Shown here piece after piece: positions 43,804-64,000 of a DNA stretch of 64,000 nucleotides. The stretch lies in assembly GCA_027622665.1 (NCBI GenBank), contig JAQBYT010000001.1:384001-448000 (forward strand), given 5' to 3'. The notes under the pieces were generated by a model, which made no database searches, was not told where the DNA came from, and was given only the letters and a program-made list of their open reading frames with translations. Within the stretch, counting starts at the first letter, position 1. The number at the start of each line of letters is the position of its first letter. The position numbers and the translations under genes are program-made. The stretch comes from Verrucomicrobiota bacterium. Lineage in GTDB: Bacteria; Verrucomicrobiota; Verrucomicrobiia; Opitutales; Seribacteraceae.

Positions 43804-44940
43804 TTAAGCAGTGGTGATTAGTTTAAGAAACTCTTTGTTGTCGGCAGTTTTTTCCATTCGTTCTATTAGGGTCTCGGCAGCATCCGCGATTTTCATGGGA
43901 GCCATGGCTCGCCGGACGAACGAGGATTTTTCCAAGACCTCGGGTGATAACAAGTCCTCCTCTTTACGAGTGCCGGAGGCGGCGAGGTTGATGGCGGGCC
44001 AGAGTCGAAGTTCCGCAACCTTGCGGTCGAGAACTATCTCGCTGTTCCCGGTACCCTTGAATTCTTGAAATATAAGTTCGTCCATCTTGGAGCCGGTTTC
44101 CACTAGAGCAGTGGCCACGATCGTTAGGCTGCCGGCTTCTTCCGAATTTCGTGCGGCGGAAAATATCTGTCTAGGTTTTTCAAGCGCCCTGGCGTCCAAT
44201 CCCCCCGTCATGGTTCGCCCTCCCTTGCCGGTGGCGGCATTGTACGCTCGCGATAGGCGTGTGATCGAATCTAGCAACAGGACCACGTCTTTTCCGGTTT
44301 CCACTAACCGTTTGGCTCGCTCGATGGCCAATTCGGCAACGCGCAGATGGTTCTTTACTTCTTCGTCGTTGGACGAGGCGTATATTTCGGCGGGAACGGA
44401 CCTGCGAAAGTCGGTGACCTCCTCGGGCCTTTCATCCACCAATAAAACCATTAGGTGGCACTCCGGGTGATTTTCTTCCACACCTTTTGCGATATCGTGC
44501 AATATGGTGGTCTTTCCCGTCCTCGGCGGAGCGACAATGAGTGCGCGTTGCCCTTTGCCGATGGGGCAAAACATGTCAATGATTCGGGAGGTCATTCGTC
44601 CGTCACTTACTTCGAGAGTCAATTTTTCTTTTGGCTGGATAGTGGTAAGTTGATCGAAGCGAAACTGAATCTTTCTCTCGTTGATCGACAAACCATCAAC
44701 GGTCTCGATGAAGCGAACCTTTGGGTTGCCATACTTATTGTCGGACGTTGCGTTGGCGGTTAAGTGAGACCCCTTCCGTAGTTTGAAGCGTCGCAACAGC
44801 TCGCGAGGAACAAAGGGATCGTGGGGGGTTGTTTTACCCCCCCTTGAGAGATCAAGCAAGATGCCCGACTTGTTTTCAGTCGGTTCCAAGATGCCCTCGA
44901 CCTGAATAAGGTCTTGAGGCGGACTGTTGTTTTCGCTCAT
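43804..44940 (-). CDS. rho: Transcription termination factor Rho
   Basis: [58 protein letters not shown]. Confidence 0.96.
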
Positions 44941-55693: not shown

Positions 55694-56623
55694 CTATTCC
55701 TTTTCAGCGAGCCAACGCTCTGCTTCTATCGCCGCCTGGCATCCCATTCCTGCGGCAGTTATGGCCTGACGATAGGCATGATCCGCGCAATCGCCGGCAA
55801 CGTATACGCCCGGCACGGAGGAGCGAACCATGCTGTTCTGCTCGGGGACAAGGTAACCATCTTCGTCGAGTTCGAGGACGCCTTCAAACGGTTTCGTGTT
55901 GGGGATGTGCCCAATGGCAATAAAAACACCCTTGCAGGGAACGTTGCTCGTGTCGTTGGCTTTAAGATTCCGGATTTTAACAGCGTTTGCCTTGCCGTCT
56001 TCGCCGGCTAAAACCTCTTCGACGGCAGAATCCCAAATCACCTCGATTTTTTCGTGAGCAAGTGCCCGTTCGGCCATGATTCTTGACGCTCGGAGCTCAC
56101 CTCTTCGGTGAACAAGAGTTACTTTGGAGCAAAACCTTGTAAGGAAAAGGGATTCTTCGCATGCTGAATCGCCACCGCCAACAACGACAACGTCCATGTC
56201 TCTGTAGAATGCGCCATCGCAAGTGGCGCAAGTGGTGACTCCTTTACCGCCATACATTTCTTTCTCGCCCGGTATGCCCAGAAGGCGAGGGGCGGCTCCG
56301 GTGGCAATGATGACGGTGCGGGCCTCGAAGCTCTTTTCACCGGCATAAAGAATTTTGCGTTCCTCGGAAAAATCGACGCGATCGACTAATGCGCTCTCAA
56401 AACGAGAGCCGAAACGAGCGGCTTGCTTGCGAAGATTGTCCATGAGCATGAAACCGTCGATGCCTTCGGGAAATCCAGGAAAGTTTTCCACTTCCGAGGT
56501 TGTGGTTAATTGCCCGCCAGGCAGGTCGCCCTCGAGTATCAGGGGCTGAAGATTAGCCCTCGCGGTGTAAATGCCCGCAGTGAACCCTGCGCAACCTGTT
56601 CCCAAGATGATGACGTTTTCCAT
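55694..56623 (-). CDS. trxB: Thioredoxin reductase
   Basis: [44 protein letters not shown]. Confidence 0.96.
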
Positions 56624-58732: not shown

Positions 58733-60580
58733 TTAACTTTCCTTTTCGGATCGCCCTGATTGCTTTATTTGCTCGGCGTAGATGGTTACCTGAGCCTTTT
58801 CTCCCTTAACCAACTCCTTGGCTCTTCGAATGGCCTTGGCGACTGAAAGAGTTGGATTGCTTGGGCTGTCTATGAAGAGGTTTTTGCGATTGAGGCGTGG
58901 AAGCAGTCCCGAGTTTCGAAAAATGCGCAAAATATCTTTTCGTATCTCGCACAAAAGTACATGGCAATTCTTCTCTTTGAGATAGTCCAATAACTCTTCC
59001 AGTGCCAGCACTGAAGTGGCATCAAGATGGTGGGCATTACGTAACTTTAGCACAAGTACACGCAGGTTCCGGTCTTCGCCCACCCTCCGTATTTGTTCGT
59101 AAAACAATTCGGCGGCTGCAAAAAACAATTCGCCTTCCACATGGACGATCGAAACTTCAGGTTCCGGTCGTTTTGCGTTATCGGAGATGGCCGCGAGATG
59201 ACCTTCCTTAGTATAGCCGTACTCCACTAACTCGGGTTCGGACACCTTCCTTAAAAATAAAAGTATCGACGTGGTCACTCCTGCAAAAATCGCGATTTGT
59301 AAAGAAAGCAACAGGCCGAAAACGAGAGTTACCGTGAACGCGATACCGTCCGAGCGCGTGGCTCGAGCCACGGCTCGAATCTGCTTTGATCTGATCAGGG
59401 ATGCACCAATGAACACCACCAAGGTGGCTAAGGCCGGCAAAGGGACGTAGCTTACGAGATGTCCGAGAAAAAAGGCAGCCGCCAACACTATCAGCCCGGC
59501 AAAAAGCATGGAAACCTGGGATCGGGCTCCACTTTGAGTATTGACCGTAGACCGAGTCAAAGATCCAGACGCCGGCATGCCGGAGAAAAAGGCACATGCC
59601 AAGTTGCTCGCGCCAATGGCAAAAGTTTCTTGGTTGGCATTTAGGCGTTCTCCCGCTCGAGCGGCTAATGACTTGCCGATGGAAATGCCTTCCAGTGCGC
59701 AAAGCAGGGCCAAGGCTCCAGCGGTCCAACAGATCGTGCCAAAAGAAGAAATGCCTATTGCGTCGAAGTCAGGCAGTGAAAAAATCCCTACTCCTGCTGA
59801 AAAAGCTTCCAAGGTTTGTAGCTCTAAACCGTATGCCTTGAAGCCGAGCGACGCGATTGATGCGAGGGCCAAGGTAATCGCAACATTAGGCAGCTTGCAA
59901 AAACGTCCCCGAAGCAAAAGAAAAAGTACGGCCGTCAAGGCACTCATTGCAATCGCCGGTCCAGAAGCATTGCCTATCGACCGAATCGTTGCCCATGCCA
60001 CCTCGAGAAAGGTCGACGGAGCGTCCCCGCCTTCAAAACGAAAACCGAGGATATGGTGGCACTGGTTGGCGATGATGAGGACGGCGGCAGCCGTCACGTA
60101 CGCCGTGATCACCGTTCGGGAAACGTATTGTACCATGGTGGCTAGGCGTAACCAGGAGGCGACGACAAGAAAGATGCCGGCTAGCAATGGAAAAAGAGGC
60201 AGCAGCGCCAGCGCTTCGCCTGAAGCTACTCCGCCTGCGTCGGTTAATTGCAATCCGGCGAATGTTCCGAAAAGAAGCACCGCAGTAGCATTGGTGGGGC
60301 CAAGGGCGATAAAGCGAGATCCCGTGAAAAGCGAACCCACGATGGCCGCCACCGCCGAACCAAAGATACCGTACTTTATGGGAATTCCCGCAACCAAGGC
60401 ATAAGCCATTCCCTGAGGAAAAGCCAATAGGGCAACGTTCAGCGCTGCCCTAAAGTCTCCCGAAAAGTCTTCTCGCTTGTAGTTTCCGAGTGCTTGGAGG
60501 ATGGGAAACAATCTTATTCCGGGAGAAATGGCTGCAGGCAAATGCCCGAAAGCTCCCGATTTGTTTTTTTTTGGCGCCAT
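58733..60580 (-). CDS. SulP family anion transporter with STAS domain
   Basis: AFPQGMAYALVAG, GPTNA, SGSLTRS, GELFFAAAE, LDATS. Confidence 0.93.
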   Translation of the reverse strand: MAPKKNKSGAFGHLPAAISPGIRLFPILQALGNYKREDFSGDFRAALNVALLAFPQGMAYALVAGIPIKYGIFGSAVAAIVGSLFTGSRFIALGPTNATAVLLFGTFAGLQLTDAGGVASGEALALLPLFPLLAGIFLVVASWLRLATMVQYVSRTVITAYVTAAAVLIIANQCHHILGFRFEGGDAPSTFLEVAWATIRSIGNASGPAIAMSALTAVLFLLLRGRFCKLPNVAITLALASIASLGFKAYGLELQTLEAFSAGVGIFSLPDFDAIGISSFGTICWTAGALALLCALEGISIGKSLAARAGERLNANQETFAIGASNLACAFFSGMPASGSLTRSTVNTQSGARSQVSMLFAGLIVLAAAFFLGHLVSYVPLPALATLVVFIGASLIRSKQIRAVARATRSDGIAFTVTLVFGLLLSLQIAIFAGVTTSILLFLRKVSEPELVEYGYTKEGHLAAISDNAKRPEPEVSIVHVEGELFFAAAELFYEQIRRVGEDRNLRVLVLKLRNAHHLDATSVLALEELLDYLKEKNCHVLLCEIRKDILRIFRNSGLLPRLNRKNLFIDSPSNPTLSVAKAIRRAKELVKGEKAQVTIYAEQIKQSGRSEKES

Positions 60581-60666
60581 TTTCAAGTTCTCGCGTTTGG
60601 CAAAATAGCGATGACTCGAAATTCTCCAAGTTCTTTCGCTCAAATGGAATTTTTTTCGAATTCTCC

Positions 60667-60693
60667 TAAAGTTTTTAGTTTTCCGGCCGATTG
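60667..60693 (+). promoter_or_regulatory. Sigma28 (FliA) promoter
   Basis: TAAAGTTT-N11-GCCGATTG versus consensus TAAAGTTT-N11-GCCGATAA, upstream of flagellin genes. Confidence 0.85.
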
Positions 60694-60701
60694 TTTTAGT
60701 A

Positions 60702-60792
60702 GCTGCATGGATGCGGCCTAATTACTACATAGGTCCCGACCCACAAGGAGGTAGGTCAAGACTGTTCAACCACACTTTTTCCAGGAGGAAGA
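60702..60792 (+). promoter_or_regulatory. Three GGA-loop hairpins (CsrA/RsmA-type sites) immediately after the sigma28 promoter
   Basis: GCTGC-ATGGAT-GCGGC (60702-17); GACCCAC-AAGGAG-GTAGGTC (60738-57); TTTTCC-AGGA-GGAAGA (60777-92). Confidence 0.75.
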
Positions 60793-60795
60793 TTA

Positions 60796-61104
60796 GTGGC
60801 GACCGTTACCTTTACTTACTCATATTCTTTTAGTGGAGGTCGTGGGCAGCATCTACTTCGGCGGATGTCGTACACGGCTCTCCACATAGGCGATTGCCTT
60901 GCGGCTCTGCTGCGTACTCGTAGGCCGGGGTCTCCGTCTTGTGGTCCTCCCGGGCGAGCTTTGCCCGAATCTCTAAGTATTCTTTATAGATGGGTTGCTT
61001 GGGGTCCTGTTGCATTTCCTTTACCTCTAAGGGTGGGAATGGACAATTTGTCGTGTCCTCATGCCGCCCTCGTGTTTTCCCGCAACTTTATGACAACCCA
61101 TTAA
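60796..61104 (+). other. Doubtful 102-aa ORF with strong SD, possible remnant or leader ORF
   Basis: AGGAGG at 60783-88, 7 nt before GTG; product resembles no family I recognise. Confidence 0.3.
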
Positions 61105-61373
61105 CTAATATATGAACTCTTAACAGAGCAAGAGCTCCGCCAGGATGGCGGCGCCTACTCGCATTCACCTGCAAACTATTTCCGAGACAAGGAAGTCTCC
61201 TCATGCAACTTAGCAATTTCGTAACTTTACAGTCGCGAGGGCACCATCCCCGCAAATCTGTTCGGGTCTTCCCGTCCAGACCCTTAACTGGCTGTGTACC
61301 CTGCGGCTTGAAGGGAAGTTCATCTTTGGTATCCGTCTGTCGGAAAACTCACAAATCTCTCTTTTCCAAATAA
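61095..61373 (+). pseudogene. Duplicated flagellin leader plus truncated flagellin start (56-aa ORF, 61203-61373)
   Basis: Block ~61095-61241 resembles 61384-61530 (offset 289 nt); MQLSNFVTLQSRG vs MQLTNYGFIESRG, then unrelated sequence. Confidence 0.7.
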
Positions 61374-61419
61374 ACCAACAATAAACCCATAAACTAATCA
61401 ATGAACCTTACCTGATTTA

Positions 61420-61488
61420 GGGCTCCGCCAGGAGGGCGGCGCCCAATCATTTAATTACTAAATGTAAACCCTGAGACAAGGAGGTCTC
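61420..61488 (+). promoter_or_regulatory. Two CsrA-type GGA hairpins in the flagellin 5' UTR, the second holding the SD in its loop
   Basis: CCGCC-AGGAG-GGCGG (61425-39); GAGAC-AAGGAG-GTCTC (61473-88), ATG at 61492. Confidence 0.8.
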
Positions 61489-61491
61489 GTT

Positions 61492-62970
61492 ATGCAACTA
61501 ACCAACTATGGATTCATCGAGTCCCGAGGTAACTATATCTCGGCTCGAGCCAACTACGAACGTCCCATGGAACGCCTTTCCACGGGACTCAAAATCAATC
61601 ATTCCCGCGATGACGTGGGGGCTTTGGGCAAGTCTGCCCTTCAGCGTATCGAAAACACAAAAGTCGGGACTTTGCGCACCAACCTGCAAAACGCCTTGAG
61701 TTATACCAAGACTCAAGACGGCGCTTTGGAGAAAGTCGGCCGAATTTACGAACGCATGGAGACTTTGGCGCTCAAGGCGATGGACGTTACCTTCGACGAT
61801 CGGTCCAGAAGTGATTTGAACGATGAATATCAAACGCTGGAGGAGCAACTCTCCGGTCTTTTGAAGCAAAAGTTCAACGGCATTTCCCTTTTTACCAAGG
61901 CGACCGGATGTACGGAACCCGAGGTGACGGAATTGGAGGCCAGCTTCGATGCGGGACTTAATGAAACATTACCCCCAACTATTCCTGCCGTTGGGGTTAA
62001 AACGCAGGCAAACCCCGATCGATGGATCGCCACGCAGGATGTCGATACTACCGATGGAACCCTTACCTTGGACGTGAATGGAGGAAGAGCTTCCGAAAGG
62101 TATATCGTCAAGCAAGGGACGACCACGATCTTTGACACGGGTTGGTGGGCGACCAATGGTTCCGCTTATACTCATGACTTAGATCGATTTGTAATCGACT
62201 TCGGCAAGGGCAAGCCAACCACGTTCGAGTTTGTTCCTCGGGATACAGGTAATTCTACTACTGACAATACCCCTGACGGAGCTTTCAACAATGAGAGCTT
62301 TAACCTTAAAGGCGGCGGTGGCCCTTCTGGCTACTTGTTGCAACTGGGAGAAGGCTCGACGGCAGGTCTTCTTGGGAAAAAATATACAACAAGCGGTGGA
62401 CCGGTGACTCAAGGTCAGGTTGCGATAACACCGGCCCCGGGCGACAGTACGGAACTGACGATTGAGGTTCAATCCACGAGCTTGTTTCAAGCGGCTGCAG
62501 ACTTCAAAGGTGTCAAAATAATAGAGCCCGTGGAAGTTCCGGCATTAGAGGTCGTTGTCAACGAAGCTGGAGATATCGCGCGTTTCGAAGCCTTGGGGTT
62601 CAGTCGTCTATCCGGTACCGATATTACTACACGAGATAATGCGCAAGCAGTGCTTGAGCGTCTTCTCGGAGAGAACGGCGAAGCTACCGAGCACGGAGAA
62701 GTTCATTGCTTGGTGAATGGCCAAAGAGGTGAAATCGCCAAGAGTATGCGTCGTATGGAGTTGGAAATCGAAAGACTCGAAAACAAAACGATCAGCGGTG
62801 AAAAAACGCTTGGCCGCATAGAAGATGCCCACATGGCCAAAGAAGCGACCAAGTTTGCCAAGCAGTCTCTCAAGATGGAACTGGCCGCAAACATAATGTC
62901 TCGTGTAACTAGACTAACAGACGTGCTTTTGCCCTTGGTCACCCAACGAGTAGGTGGTCCCGGCTTGTAA
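61492..62970 (+). CDS. Divergent flagellin with beta-rich central domain
   Basis: ERLSTGLKINHSRDD, NLQNALSYTKTQDGAL, KFNGISLF; C-terminal GRIEDAHMAKEATKF. Confidence 0.9.
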   Translation: MQLTNYGFIESRGNYISARANYERPMERLSTGLKINHSRDDVGALGKSALQRIENTKVGTLRTNLQNALSYTKTQDGALEKVGRIYERMETLALKAMDVTFDDRSRSDLNDEYQTLEEQLSGLLKQKFNGISLFTKATGCTEPEVTELEASFDAGLNETLPPTIPAVGVKTQANPDRWIATQDVDTTDGTLTLDVNGGRASERYIVKQGTTTIFDTGWWATNGSAYTHDLDRFVIDFGKGKPTTFEFVPRDTGNSTTDNTPDGAFNNESFNLKGGGGPSGYLLQLGEGSTAGLLGKKYTTSGGPVTQGQVAITPAPGDSTELTIEVQSTSLFQAAADFKGVKIIEPVEVPALEVVVNEAGDIARFEALGFSRLSGTDITTRDNAQAVLERLLGENGEATEHGEVHCLVNGQRGEIAKSMRRMELEIERLENKTISGEKTLGRIEDAHMAKEATKFAKQSLKMELAANIMSRVTRLTDVLLPLVTQRVGGPGL

Positions 62971-63192: not shown

Positions 63193-64000
63193 ATGATTAG
63201 TGACCAAATCAACATGCATATTGCCAGAGAGTTGGGAACTTTGGATCGTGAGCATCGAGTTCACGTGAAGAAGCTTTCAACTGGCAAGCGCATACTTGCG
63301 CCCGGAGACGATGCGGGTGGCTACTCCTTGGCCGTGAAGCATGGAAGTGCCGCAAGGCGAACCCAAGCGATGCTGACCAATCTGCAAAACGTCCTTTCCT
63401 ACGCCCAAACCCAAGACGGAGTTTTGACTAGCGTTGGAAAGGTTTACAAGCGAATGGACGAACTTACCGCTATGGCGATGGATCCGACTAAAACCGATTC
63501 CGACCGTGCTTTATATAACAAGGAATTCCAAGAGTTGCGCGACATGGCAGTTCGGGCGAACGGTGAGGATTTCAACGGACTTCGCCTTTTCCGAGGGAAG
63601 CTATATGAGCTTGTTGACAAGGGGATGAAAATCAATTGGACCGACTCGAAGGCAGAGGTCGATGCACTGGACGCCGGAGATGCAAACAACACCTATTACT
63701 TGGCAACCATTACCTCTGAAACCGAGCAAGCGGAGGTTGGCCTACAGATCGGAGACGTCGGCATCAATGCTTGGCTCGGAGGAAATGATACTGCTGTTGA
63801 AGGGGAATGGAGGTGGACCGAAGGTCCCGAAGGCTTGGAGGATGGAGGCCAAGGCAGGCAGTTTTGGCAGGGCCAATCCAATGGCTCTGGCGTAAACGGT
63901 TCCTTTGAAAATTGGGGCGGCCGAGAACCAAATGATTCTGGGAACGAGGACTACCTTCAAATTAGCCAAGCTTCTAACCCCGTTGCCTCTTGGAACGATT
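63193..64000 (+). CDS. Flagellin with C-type lectin domain in the variable region (3' truncated by window; absent from ORF track)
   Basis: Manual translation: MISDQINMHIARELG...KKLSTGKRI...DDAGG...NLQNVLSYAQTQDG...FNGLRLF, then YELV..INWTDSK..YLATITSETEQ..AWLGGNDTAVEGEWRW..FENWGGREPNDSGNEDY..WND; AAGGA SD 8 nt upstream. Confidence 0.9.
   Translation, partial: MISDQINMHIARELGTLDREHRVHVKKLSTGKRILAPGDDAGGYSLAVKHGSAARRTQAMLTNLQNVLSYAQTQDGVLTSVGKVYKRMDELTAMAMDPTKTDSDRALYNKEFQELRDMAVRANGEDFNGLRLFRGKLYELVDKGMKINWTDSKAEVDALDAGDANNTYYLATITSETEQAEVGLQIGDVGINAWLGGNDTAVEGEWRWTEGPEGLEDGGQGRQFWQGQSNGSGVNGSFENWGGREPNDSGNEDYLQISQASNPVASWND

Follow-up and report, generated by a model that had tools for sequence, protein, structure and literature searches.

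The region upstream of an intact flagellin-like gene, in which seven hairpins with GGA loops follow a single sigma28-type promoter, raises the question of what so many apparent CsrA sites are kept for. We addressed this question in the window, by which we mean the whole 64,000-nt stretch of DNA analysed. The initial annotation had regarded the region as one sigma28 leader of about 800 nt whose surplus sites might titrate CsrA or might be relics of deleted flagellin genes. As judged from its sequence, we consider the element to be real and selected, and to be a variant form of flagellin control by CsrA and FliW, put together from relics of genes. Our main reading, to which we give a probability of about 0.5, is that three predicted CsrA operators lie on one predicted sigma28 transcript, and that CsrA would silence what lies downstream by way of gene stumps left free of ribosomes. 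The argument draws on the following features of the window.

58733..60643, minus strand: divergent SulP-family transporter gene (Pfam), the synteny anchor
60667..60693, plus strand: predicted sigma28 (FliA)-type promoter, from its sequence, the conservation of its boxes and fliA in the genome
60702..60717, plus strand: H1, GGA hexaloop hairpin (CANGGANG), its motif kept in 15 of 15 rows, with one both-side base change in g2
60738..60757, plus strand: H2, GGA hexaloop hairpin with no start codon behind it, from the conservation rows
60777..60798, plus strand: H3, weak hairpin covering the SD (AGGAGG) and GTG of ORF1, from folding; absent in genus g5
60796..61104, plus strand: ORF1, 102-codon putative stump in the slot of a lost first flagellin-like gene, with an open frame and free sequence
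60833..60886, plus strand: 20-pair hairpin inside ORF1, z -3.3 to -7.3 in 10 of 10 rows
61095..61130, plus strand: A/C-rich spacer with stops in all three frames, from the sequence; a repeat of 61384-61418
61131..61156, plus strand: H4, duplicate of H6, its stem retained and its GGA gone in 6 of 13 rows
61184..61205, plus strand: H5, ANGGA hairpin covering ORF2's ATG and weak SD, ANGGA in 13 of 13 rows
61203..61373, plus strand: ORF2, 56-codon putative stump whose first 15 or so codons match the downstream flagellin-like gene
61420..61444, plus strand: H6, CAGGA hairpin, predicted upstream operator site for the intact gene, its GGA kept in 10 of 10 rows
61473..61494, plus strand: H7, hairpin covering the intact gene's SD and ATG, its GGA kept in 10 of 10 rows
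61492..62970, plus strand: intact flagellin-like gene, 492 aa, with Flagellin_N and Flagellin_C (Pfam)
63193..64000, plus strand: flagellin-like gene with a C-type-lectin-like middle (Lectin_C, E 0.032 only), 421 aa, extending beyond the window

The promoter is made up of TAAA at 60667-70, a gap of 15 nt and GCCGATTG at 60686-93. Across relatives, which are marine Opitutia/Opitutales, identity is 97% in the -35 box and 89% in the -10 box, compared with 66% in the spacer; the near-consensus sigma28 promoter annotated ahead of the hairpins holds as a prediction, with both boxes kept and the spacer free to vary. A sigma28-type promoter is found at the same locus in two further genera, g2 and g5. 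Elsewhere in the genome, close matches to the sigma28 promoter lie near 103113 on the minus strand of contig C47, ahead of a short AT-rich leader plus gene, and near 55844 and 6044 of contig C30.

Behind the promoter, all seven hairpins were found where they had been annotated, with local folding energies of -6.3 to -19.6 kcal/mol in 36-nt windows and GGA at 60709, 60747, 60784, 61143, 61191, 61431 and 61480. The single leader, by contrast, gave way to three tandem CsrA-type operators: H1-H2-H3 lead to the GTG at 60796 (ORF1), H4-H5 to the ATG at 61203 (ORF2), and H6-H7 to the ATG at 61492. Each of the three SD-covering hairpins that the annotation had pointed out (H3, H5 and H7) is followed by a start codon, and a full-length gene stands behind H7 only, as it had stated; the frames of ORF1 and ORF2 behind H3 and H5 had been overlooked. 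The second unit is a 73% copy of the third over 125 nt, reaching about 15 codons into the gene. The loops are also as described, being strict ANGGA in H1, H2, H5 and H7 and CAGGA, the CsrB-type repeat motif, in H3, H4 and H6. Hairpins within an operator are spaced 38-48 nt apart, and the seven sites in 790 nt are grouped as three, two and two rather than as many closely spaced loops.

We compared the number of sites with that in 1000 dinucleotide shuffles of 60693-61491. A strict scan (stem of at least five pairs) found six sites in this interval, against a shuffle mean of 0.16 and a maximum of 2, and six ties for the highest number in any 800-nt window of the genome. With looser criteria, eight sites were found (shuffle maximum 5), with eight other site-anchored windows scoring higher and 18 equal. 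The other top window of the strict scan, near 5400-6900 of contig C22, resembles coding or antisense sequence and not an sRNA. A main flagellin gene, near 6880-7035 of contig C8, likewise has a leader in which a sigma28-type promoter is joined by several GGA hairpins in a span of about 150 nt, so that leaders with many sites are usual in this organism, whose genome has 14 Flagellin_N matches (Pfam) and, as judged by eye, similar GGA leaders before other flagellins.

The region is present in six of eight congeneric genomes (genus g1), and BLAST found it in 0 of 52 other genomes. A search with the H2 pattern gave 13 metagenome loci, of which five duplicated genome rows and were dropped, so that 15 rows remained, the genome of the window (G000) among them; since H2 served as the search pattern, its conservation in the metagenome rows is biased. 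The promoter lies 821-842 nt from the ATG in 13 loci, a count that takes in duplicates. Two rows, L067 (truncated) and L062 (which diverges after ORF1), were excluded from the simulations described below; L062:1250-2266 matches congener G001 through ORF1 and then continues as unrelated sequence, as either a misassembly or a variant without units 2 and 3. Conservation of the hairpins across relatives, on which the annotation had made its reading depend, is present in the genus rows at the orphan sites too: hairpins are 84-98% identical, compared with 63-75% for the ORF bodies.

Both frames behind the orphan sites are consistently open. ORF1 has 87-105 codons in 14 of 14 full-length rows, one of them a near-duplicate of G001, and ORF2 has 39-72 codons in 12 of 12 rows; in one of these rows the frame reaches the contig end without a stop. 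In neutral simulations on a 13-row tree, with the region's own base composition and with the observed minima as length thresholds, ORF1 was open at all 12 other tips in 0 of 1950 runs, whether or not indels or gamma rates were included; leaving out the two most distant rows gave 1 of 1650 runs. The corresponding numbers for ORF2 were 7-8 of 1800 and 36 of 1500, so that its signal of openness is modest; its SD is also weak. Stop triplets occupy 0 columns in frame, against 22 distinct columns off frame in ORF1 and 13 in ORF2. The encoded peptides, however, appear free to change. Relative to G000, 9 of 12 rows carry a frameshift, with compensating shifts near the 5' end in two lineages, and these shifts swap codons 10-30 in those two lineages and the final third in most rows. 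The dN/dS values of 0.60 (ORF1) and 0.57 (ORF2) were matched or undercut in 20 and 40 of 300 neutral simulations, respectively; sulP and the start of the flagellin gene gave 0.07 and 0.23 for comparison. Because stop codons have been purged, we infer that selection favours translation across the stumps and acts on the peptide only weakly or not at all.

These observations bear on the alternative that ORF1 and ORF2 encode small proteins that are useful in themselves, with CsrA controlling each in the ordinary way. In favour of it, each frame is open and has an SD and a start codon, dN/dS is below 1 for both, and some motifs recur in ORF1. However, frameshifts rewrite their codons, their dN/dS lies in the neutral range and they are absent from g5, making this alternative improbable in our estimation. 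Additionally, Pfam gave no family for ORF1, ORF2 or an antisense frame of 61 aa, and an exact look-up of ORF1 and ORF2 gave no match, a look-up that the GTG start weakens for ORF1. We found neither conserved sensing codons nor a conserved peptide in either frame, given the frameshifts and the neutral-range dN/dS. An internal start behind the GGAG at 60835 was considered and rejected, as none is conserved, and translational coupling was rejected because about 100 nt or more separate the stops from the start that follows.

The origin of the stumps is suggested by genus g2, in which both genomes examined have a promoter divergent from sulP, followed by H1, H2, an SD and a GTG that opens an intact flagellin-like gene of 445 aa, with two more such genes behind it. 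The g1 and g2 leaders are homologous (E 7e-18 and 1e-17), and the first g2 gene is 49% identical to the window gene at 63193. In a trxB tree, which is that of a single gene, g2 falls outside g1, g3 and g5 with support of 95/87, a placement consistent with the intact gene being the older state. When the first 105 nt of ORF1 were anchored and aligned with the g2 genes, z was 6.8 and 4.5 for G001 and up to 5.0 for L069, and below 2.5 against both g2 genes in 7 of 13 rows. No homology was found between the ORF1 protein and flagellins, a profile search of the ORF1 body DNA against flagellin genes gave nothing, and unanchored DNA alignment of the body gave z 4.6 for G001 only and a weak signal for congener G004. 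As homology of the ORF1 body is mostly missing, its derivation from the first gene rests on position and on the 5' end. The start of ORF2 aligned with the downstream flagellin-like gene with z 5.4, reached by 0 of 200 shuffles.

It is likely from these comparisons that ORF1 and ORF2 are stumps of lost flagellin genes. The annotation's suggestion of relics is borne out in this sense by the g2 homologue and by the copied second unit; a deletion in this strain alone, which it had named as a case that would refute its reading, is rejected, as the stumps occur in six of eight congeneric genomes and in metagenome loci, and the loss is old and genus-wide. Among the genes behind the leader, relatives (L020, L060 and L063, and runs X5 and X20) differ in the middle of the intact gene, at 61623-62812, and share both of its terminal parts. 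In G006 and L063 the gene is present twice in tandem, with a near-identical H6-H7 leader before each copy. Recombination between repeats seems to add flagellin-like genes to the locus and to remove them. Flagellin-like proteins with a lectin middle (63193-64000 here; L077:9451-10788) occur in three genera at 42-49% identity and are possibly subunits of an adhesive filament.

A feature of ORF1 that is absent from the initial annotation is the 20-pair hairpin at 60833..60886. In 14 rows its pairs are formed in 95% of cells, and both sides have changed in five pairs (counted on shorter alignments). Four of five measures of this hairpin were reached by 0-1 of 500 shuffles and the fifth by 17 of 500, values that the relatedness of the rows inflates. 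The stretch of the g2 genes matching this hairpin gave z 0.6 and -2.5, and no counterpart was found in the g5 spacers, where mean z was no lower than -1.1.

Could the stumps and their hairpins be neutral leftovers of flagellin deletions whose erosion is incomplete? Their flagellin origin is supported, the locus appears to gain and lose copies through its repeated leader, and H4 is decaying. However, neutral decay does not predict that hairpins should exceed ORF bodies in conservation as they do, that stops should be purged, that the internal hairpin should covary or that sites should survive in a third genus (g5, below), and we regard this explanation as very improbable.

Our main reading draws on three elements of background: CsrA blocks ribosome loading through an upstream hairpin together with a site over the SD, partner switching between FliW and flagellin frees CsrA once flagellin accumulates, and untranslated nascent RNA is exposed to Rho. 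While FliW holds CsrA, ribosomes would cross both stumps, opening the internal hairpin and protecting the 800-nt leader, and transcription would then reach the flagellin-like genes. Free CsrA bound at H1-H3 and H4-H5 would act like a nonsense mutation and lead to early termination (through Rho) or decay, providing two extra checkpoints on top of the ordinary block at H6-H7. CsrA control would thereby extend to the gene at 63193, which has no operator of its own (no GGA hairpin was seen at its start), and the CsrA-bound leader would take up some CsrA as a side effect. The reasoning is that, if stops within the stumps are harmful, blocking the entry of ribosomes should act like a stop; since the entry sites lie inside CsrA-type operators, free CsrA would cut downstream expression. 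That the stumps are kept open points to an effect of translation in cis. However, the open frames could serve to avoid constitutive polarity with no regulatory role, which weakens the attenuation reading.

A search for the three genes named in the annotation found them all, as the genome encodes fliA and adjacent fliW and csrA, and csrA occurs in 60 of 76 genomes of the family. The genome has two rho-like genes, one at about 43816-44934 on the minus strand of the window (G000:C55:427816-428934), which scores below the family cut-off, and one at G000:C47:126879-128039; all five relatives checked also carry two. C-rich, G-poor stretches, on which Rho could load, are limited to the spacers, at 61060-61119 (19:7) and 61330-61419 (18:4, 15:2), and C is about equal to G in most of ORF1, which counts against the attenuation reading. 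No intrinsic terminator was found on the plus strand between 60500 and 63300, and Rfam, including its Csr/Rsm models, gave no relevant match for the region or the internal hairpin. Before 61492, H6-H7 show the hag/flaA-type arrangement, in which one GGA hairpin lies upstream and a second site covers the SD. Parts of the leader are present in RNA-library contigs of six studies, one contig spanning 60718-61171 and another extending from 61070 into the gene; this is weak evidence because the contigs carry no strand, level or ends and because neighbouring genes are also covered. In four RNA runs 60603-60703 is uncovered, and one contig begins at 60718; neither observation shows a transcription start. 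Contigs ending at 60884 were considered as RNA ends and rejected as strain bubbles.

A third state of the locus, found in g5, bears on the alternative that titration comes first. In 11 g5 genomes the leader at this locus is 450-480 nt long and contains H1, H2 and a pair resembling H4-H5. Its four GGA sites are 78-100% identical, compared with 44-49% for the spacers (11 of 11 aligned leaders), while the SD of H3 is lost, no start is conserved and stops occur in all three frames; the first gene lies 112-135 nt or more after H5 in the 10 leaders where this could be measured. An ATG in the H5 loop was rejected as the start, since it shares the gene's reading frame in 1 of 11. By inspection, two further, divergent g5 genomes have the four sites 400 nt upstream. 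The link between the two-hairpin units of g5 and g1 rests on position, motif order and weak covariance-model matches (E 0.02-0.4), which were the only matches obtained; profiles of units 2 and 3 of g1 did not match g5, nor did the reverse search. Nine of nine g5 rows (L110-L118) share an extra stem between H4 and H5 (UUGA/UCAA) with four invariant pairs, and g5 genomes (L079-L083) carry big arrays of flagellin-like genes, with up to 23 matches per genome.

With no start and with stops in every frame, translation of a stump cannot be the mechanism in g5. The alternative is that the orphan hairpins act in trans by titrating CsrA, either within the entire leader or within a 5' fragment of about 190 nt (H1-H3) protected by the internal hairpin, and that the open frames of g1 only avert polarity over a long leader. 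The best evidence for titration is that the four GGA sites of g5 outlive the start codons. Furthermore, H4 covaries in g5, the two divergent genomes retain the sites, and the N of ANGGA is variable in H1, H2 and H5, which would suit a CsrA site and not an SD. There are precedents in the titration of CsrA by the two-site C. jejuni flaA leader (PMC4894983) and by the Salmonella fimAICDHF 5' UTR (PMC13501541). Nevertheless, the region lacks an intrinsic terminator and an Rfam match, its 4-7 sites over 450-800 nt compare with the 13-22 given for CsrB/C (PMC6546359), the GGA of H4 decays in g1, and FliW is already present as an antagonist. The element was also detected at 0 of 10 syntenic loci in which no flagellin gene was found (one stretch being short), with a possible decayed H1 at one of them. 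A pure sponge, moreover, does not account for sites arranged in operator-like pairs before start codons, nor for stumps that are kept open. The titration claim of the annotation is thus supported as far as surplus, conserved CsrA-type sites go and not as a pure sponge, and we consider titration as the primary function, the main rival to our reading, possible but doubtful.

Attenuation and titration can coexist. They would be joined in a two-stage attenuator of CsrA-gated dummy ORFs derived from dead flagellins, in which an aborted RNA of about 190 nt (H1-H3, closed by the internal hairpin), made only when CsrA is free, would act as a CsrA sponge and form a feedback loop. We think this combination unlikely; if it is true, the g2, g1 and g5 loci would mark the steps from an mRNA leader to a gene-less CsrA-binding RNA.

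The locus presents an evolutionary series of three states (intact gene, open stump and bare hairpins), in which regulatory parts outlive their genes and an open frame appears to be selected without detectable selection on its peptide. It may also indicate how duplication of flagellin leaders could give rise to CsrA sponges with many sites, and it suits a cheap test of CsrA-imposed polarity through dummy ORFs. Our search of the literature, which consisted mostly of papers outside subscription, found no CsrA regulation in Verrucomicrobia, no CsrA leaders in this group and no report of CsrA-gated flagellin-gene stumps. Whether RNA antagonists act beside FliW in one species is posed as an open question in PMC7652899.

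Among known systems, B. subtilis hag and C. jejuni flaA are like this locus in having a sigma28-type promoter, an upstream GGA hairpin with a site over the SD, and fliW adjoining csrA, and each of the three units resembles one operator of this kind. They have two sites right before the gene, whereas here three predicted operators stand in series over 800 nt, two of them before stumps, and the sites are 38-48 nt apart compared with 21 nt in flaA. CsrB, CsrC, RsmY, RsmZ and the fimAICDHF 5' UTR likewise present several GGA-loop hairpins, including CAGGA; unlike these, the region has a low density of sites, no terminator, open frames inside it, no Rfam match and a host of the FliW type. In E. coli, according to PMC7652899, CsrA acts via a short ORF (idlP, ORF27) upstream of iraD, and through Rho at pgaA. 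The resemblance to idlP-iraD is that CsrA sites would control a short ORF and not the main gene; however, idlP overlaps iraD and is translationally coupled to it, whereas here the stops vary in position and fall about 100 nt or more short of the following start, and a separate operator precedes the main gene. As at pgaA and in the uORF-Rho attenuators (tnaC, mgtL, corL, speFL and cruR; PMC12360218), a long multi-site leader is combined with ribosome occupancy or CsrA that would decide read-through. Known attenuator uORFs sense ligands through their codons or peptide, whereas ORF1 and ORF2, with no conserved peptide, are probably flagellin-derived and would be gated at initiation.
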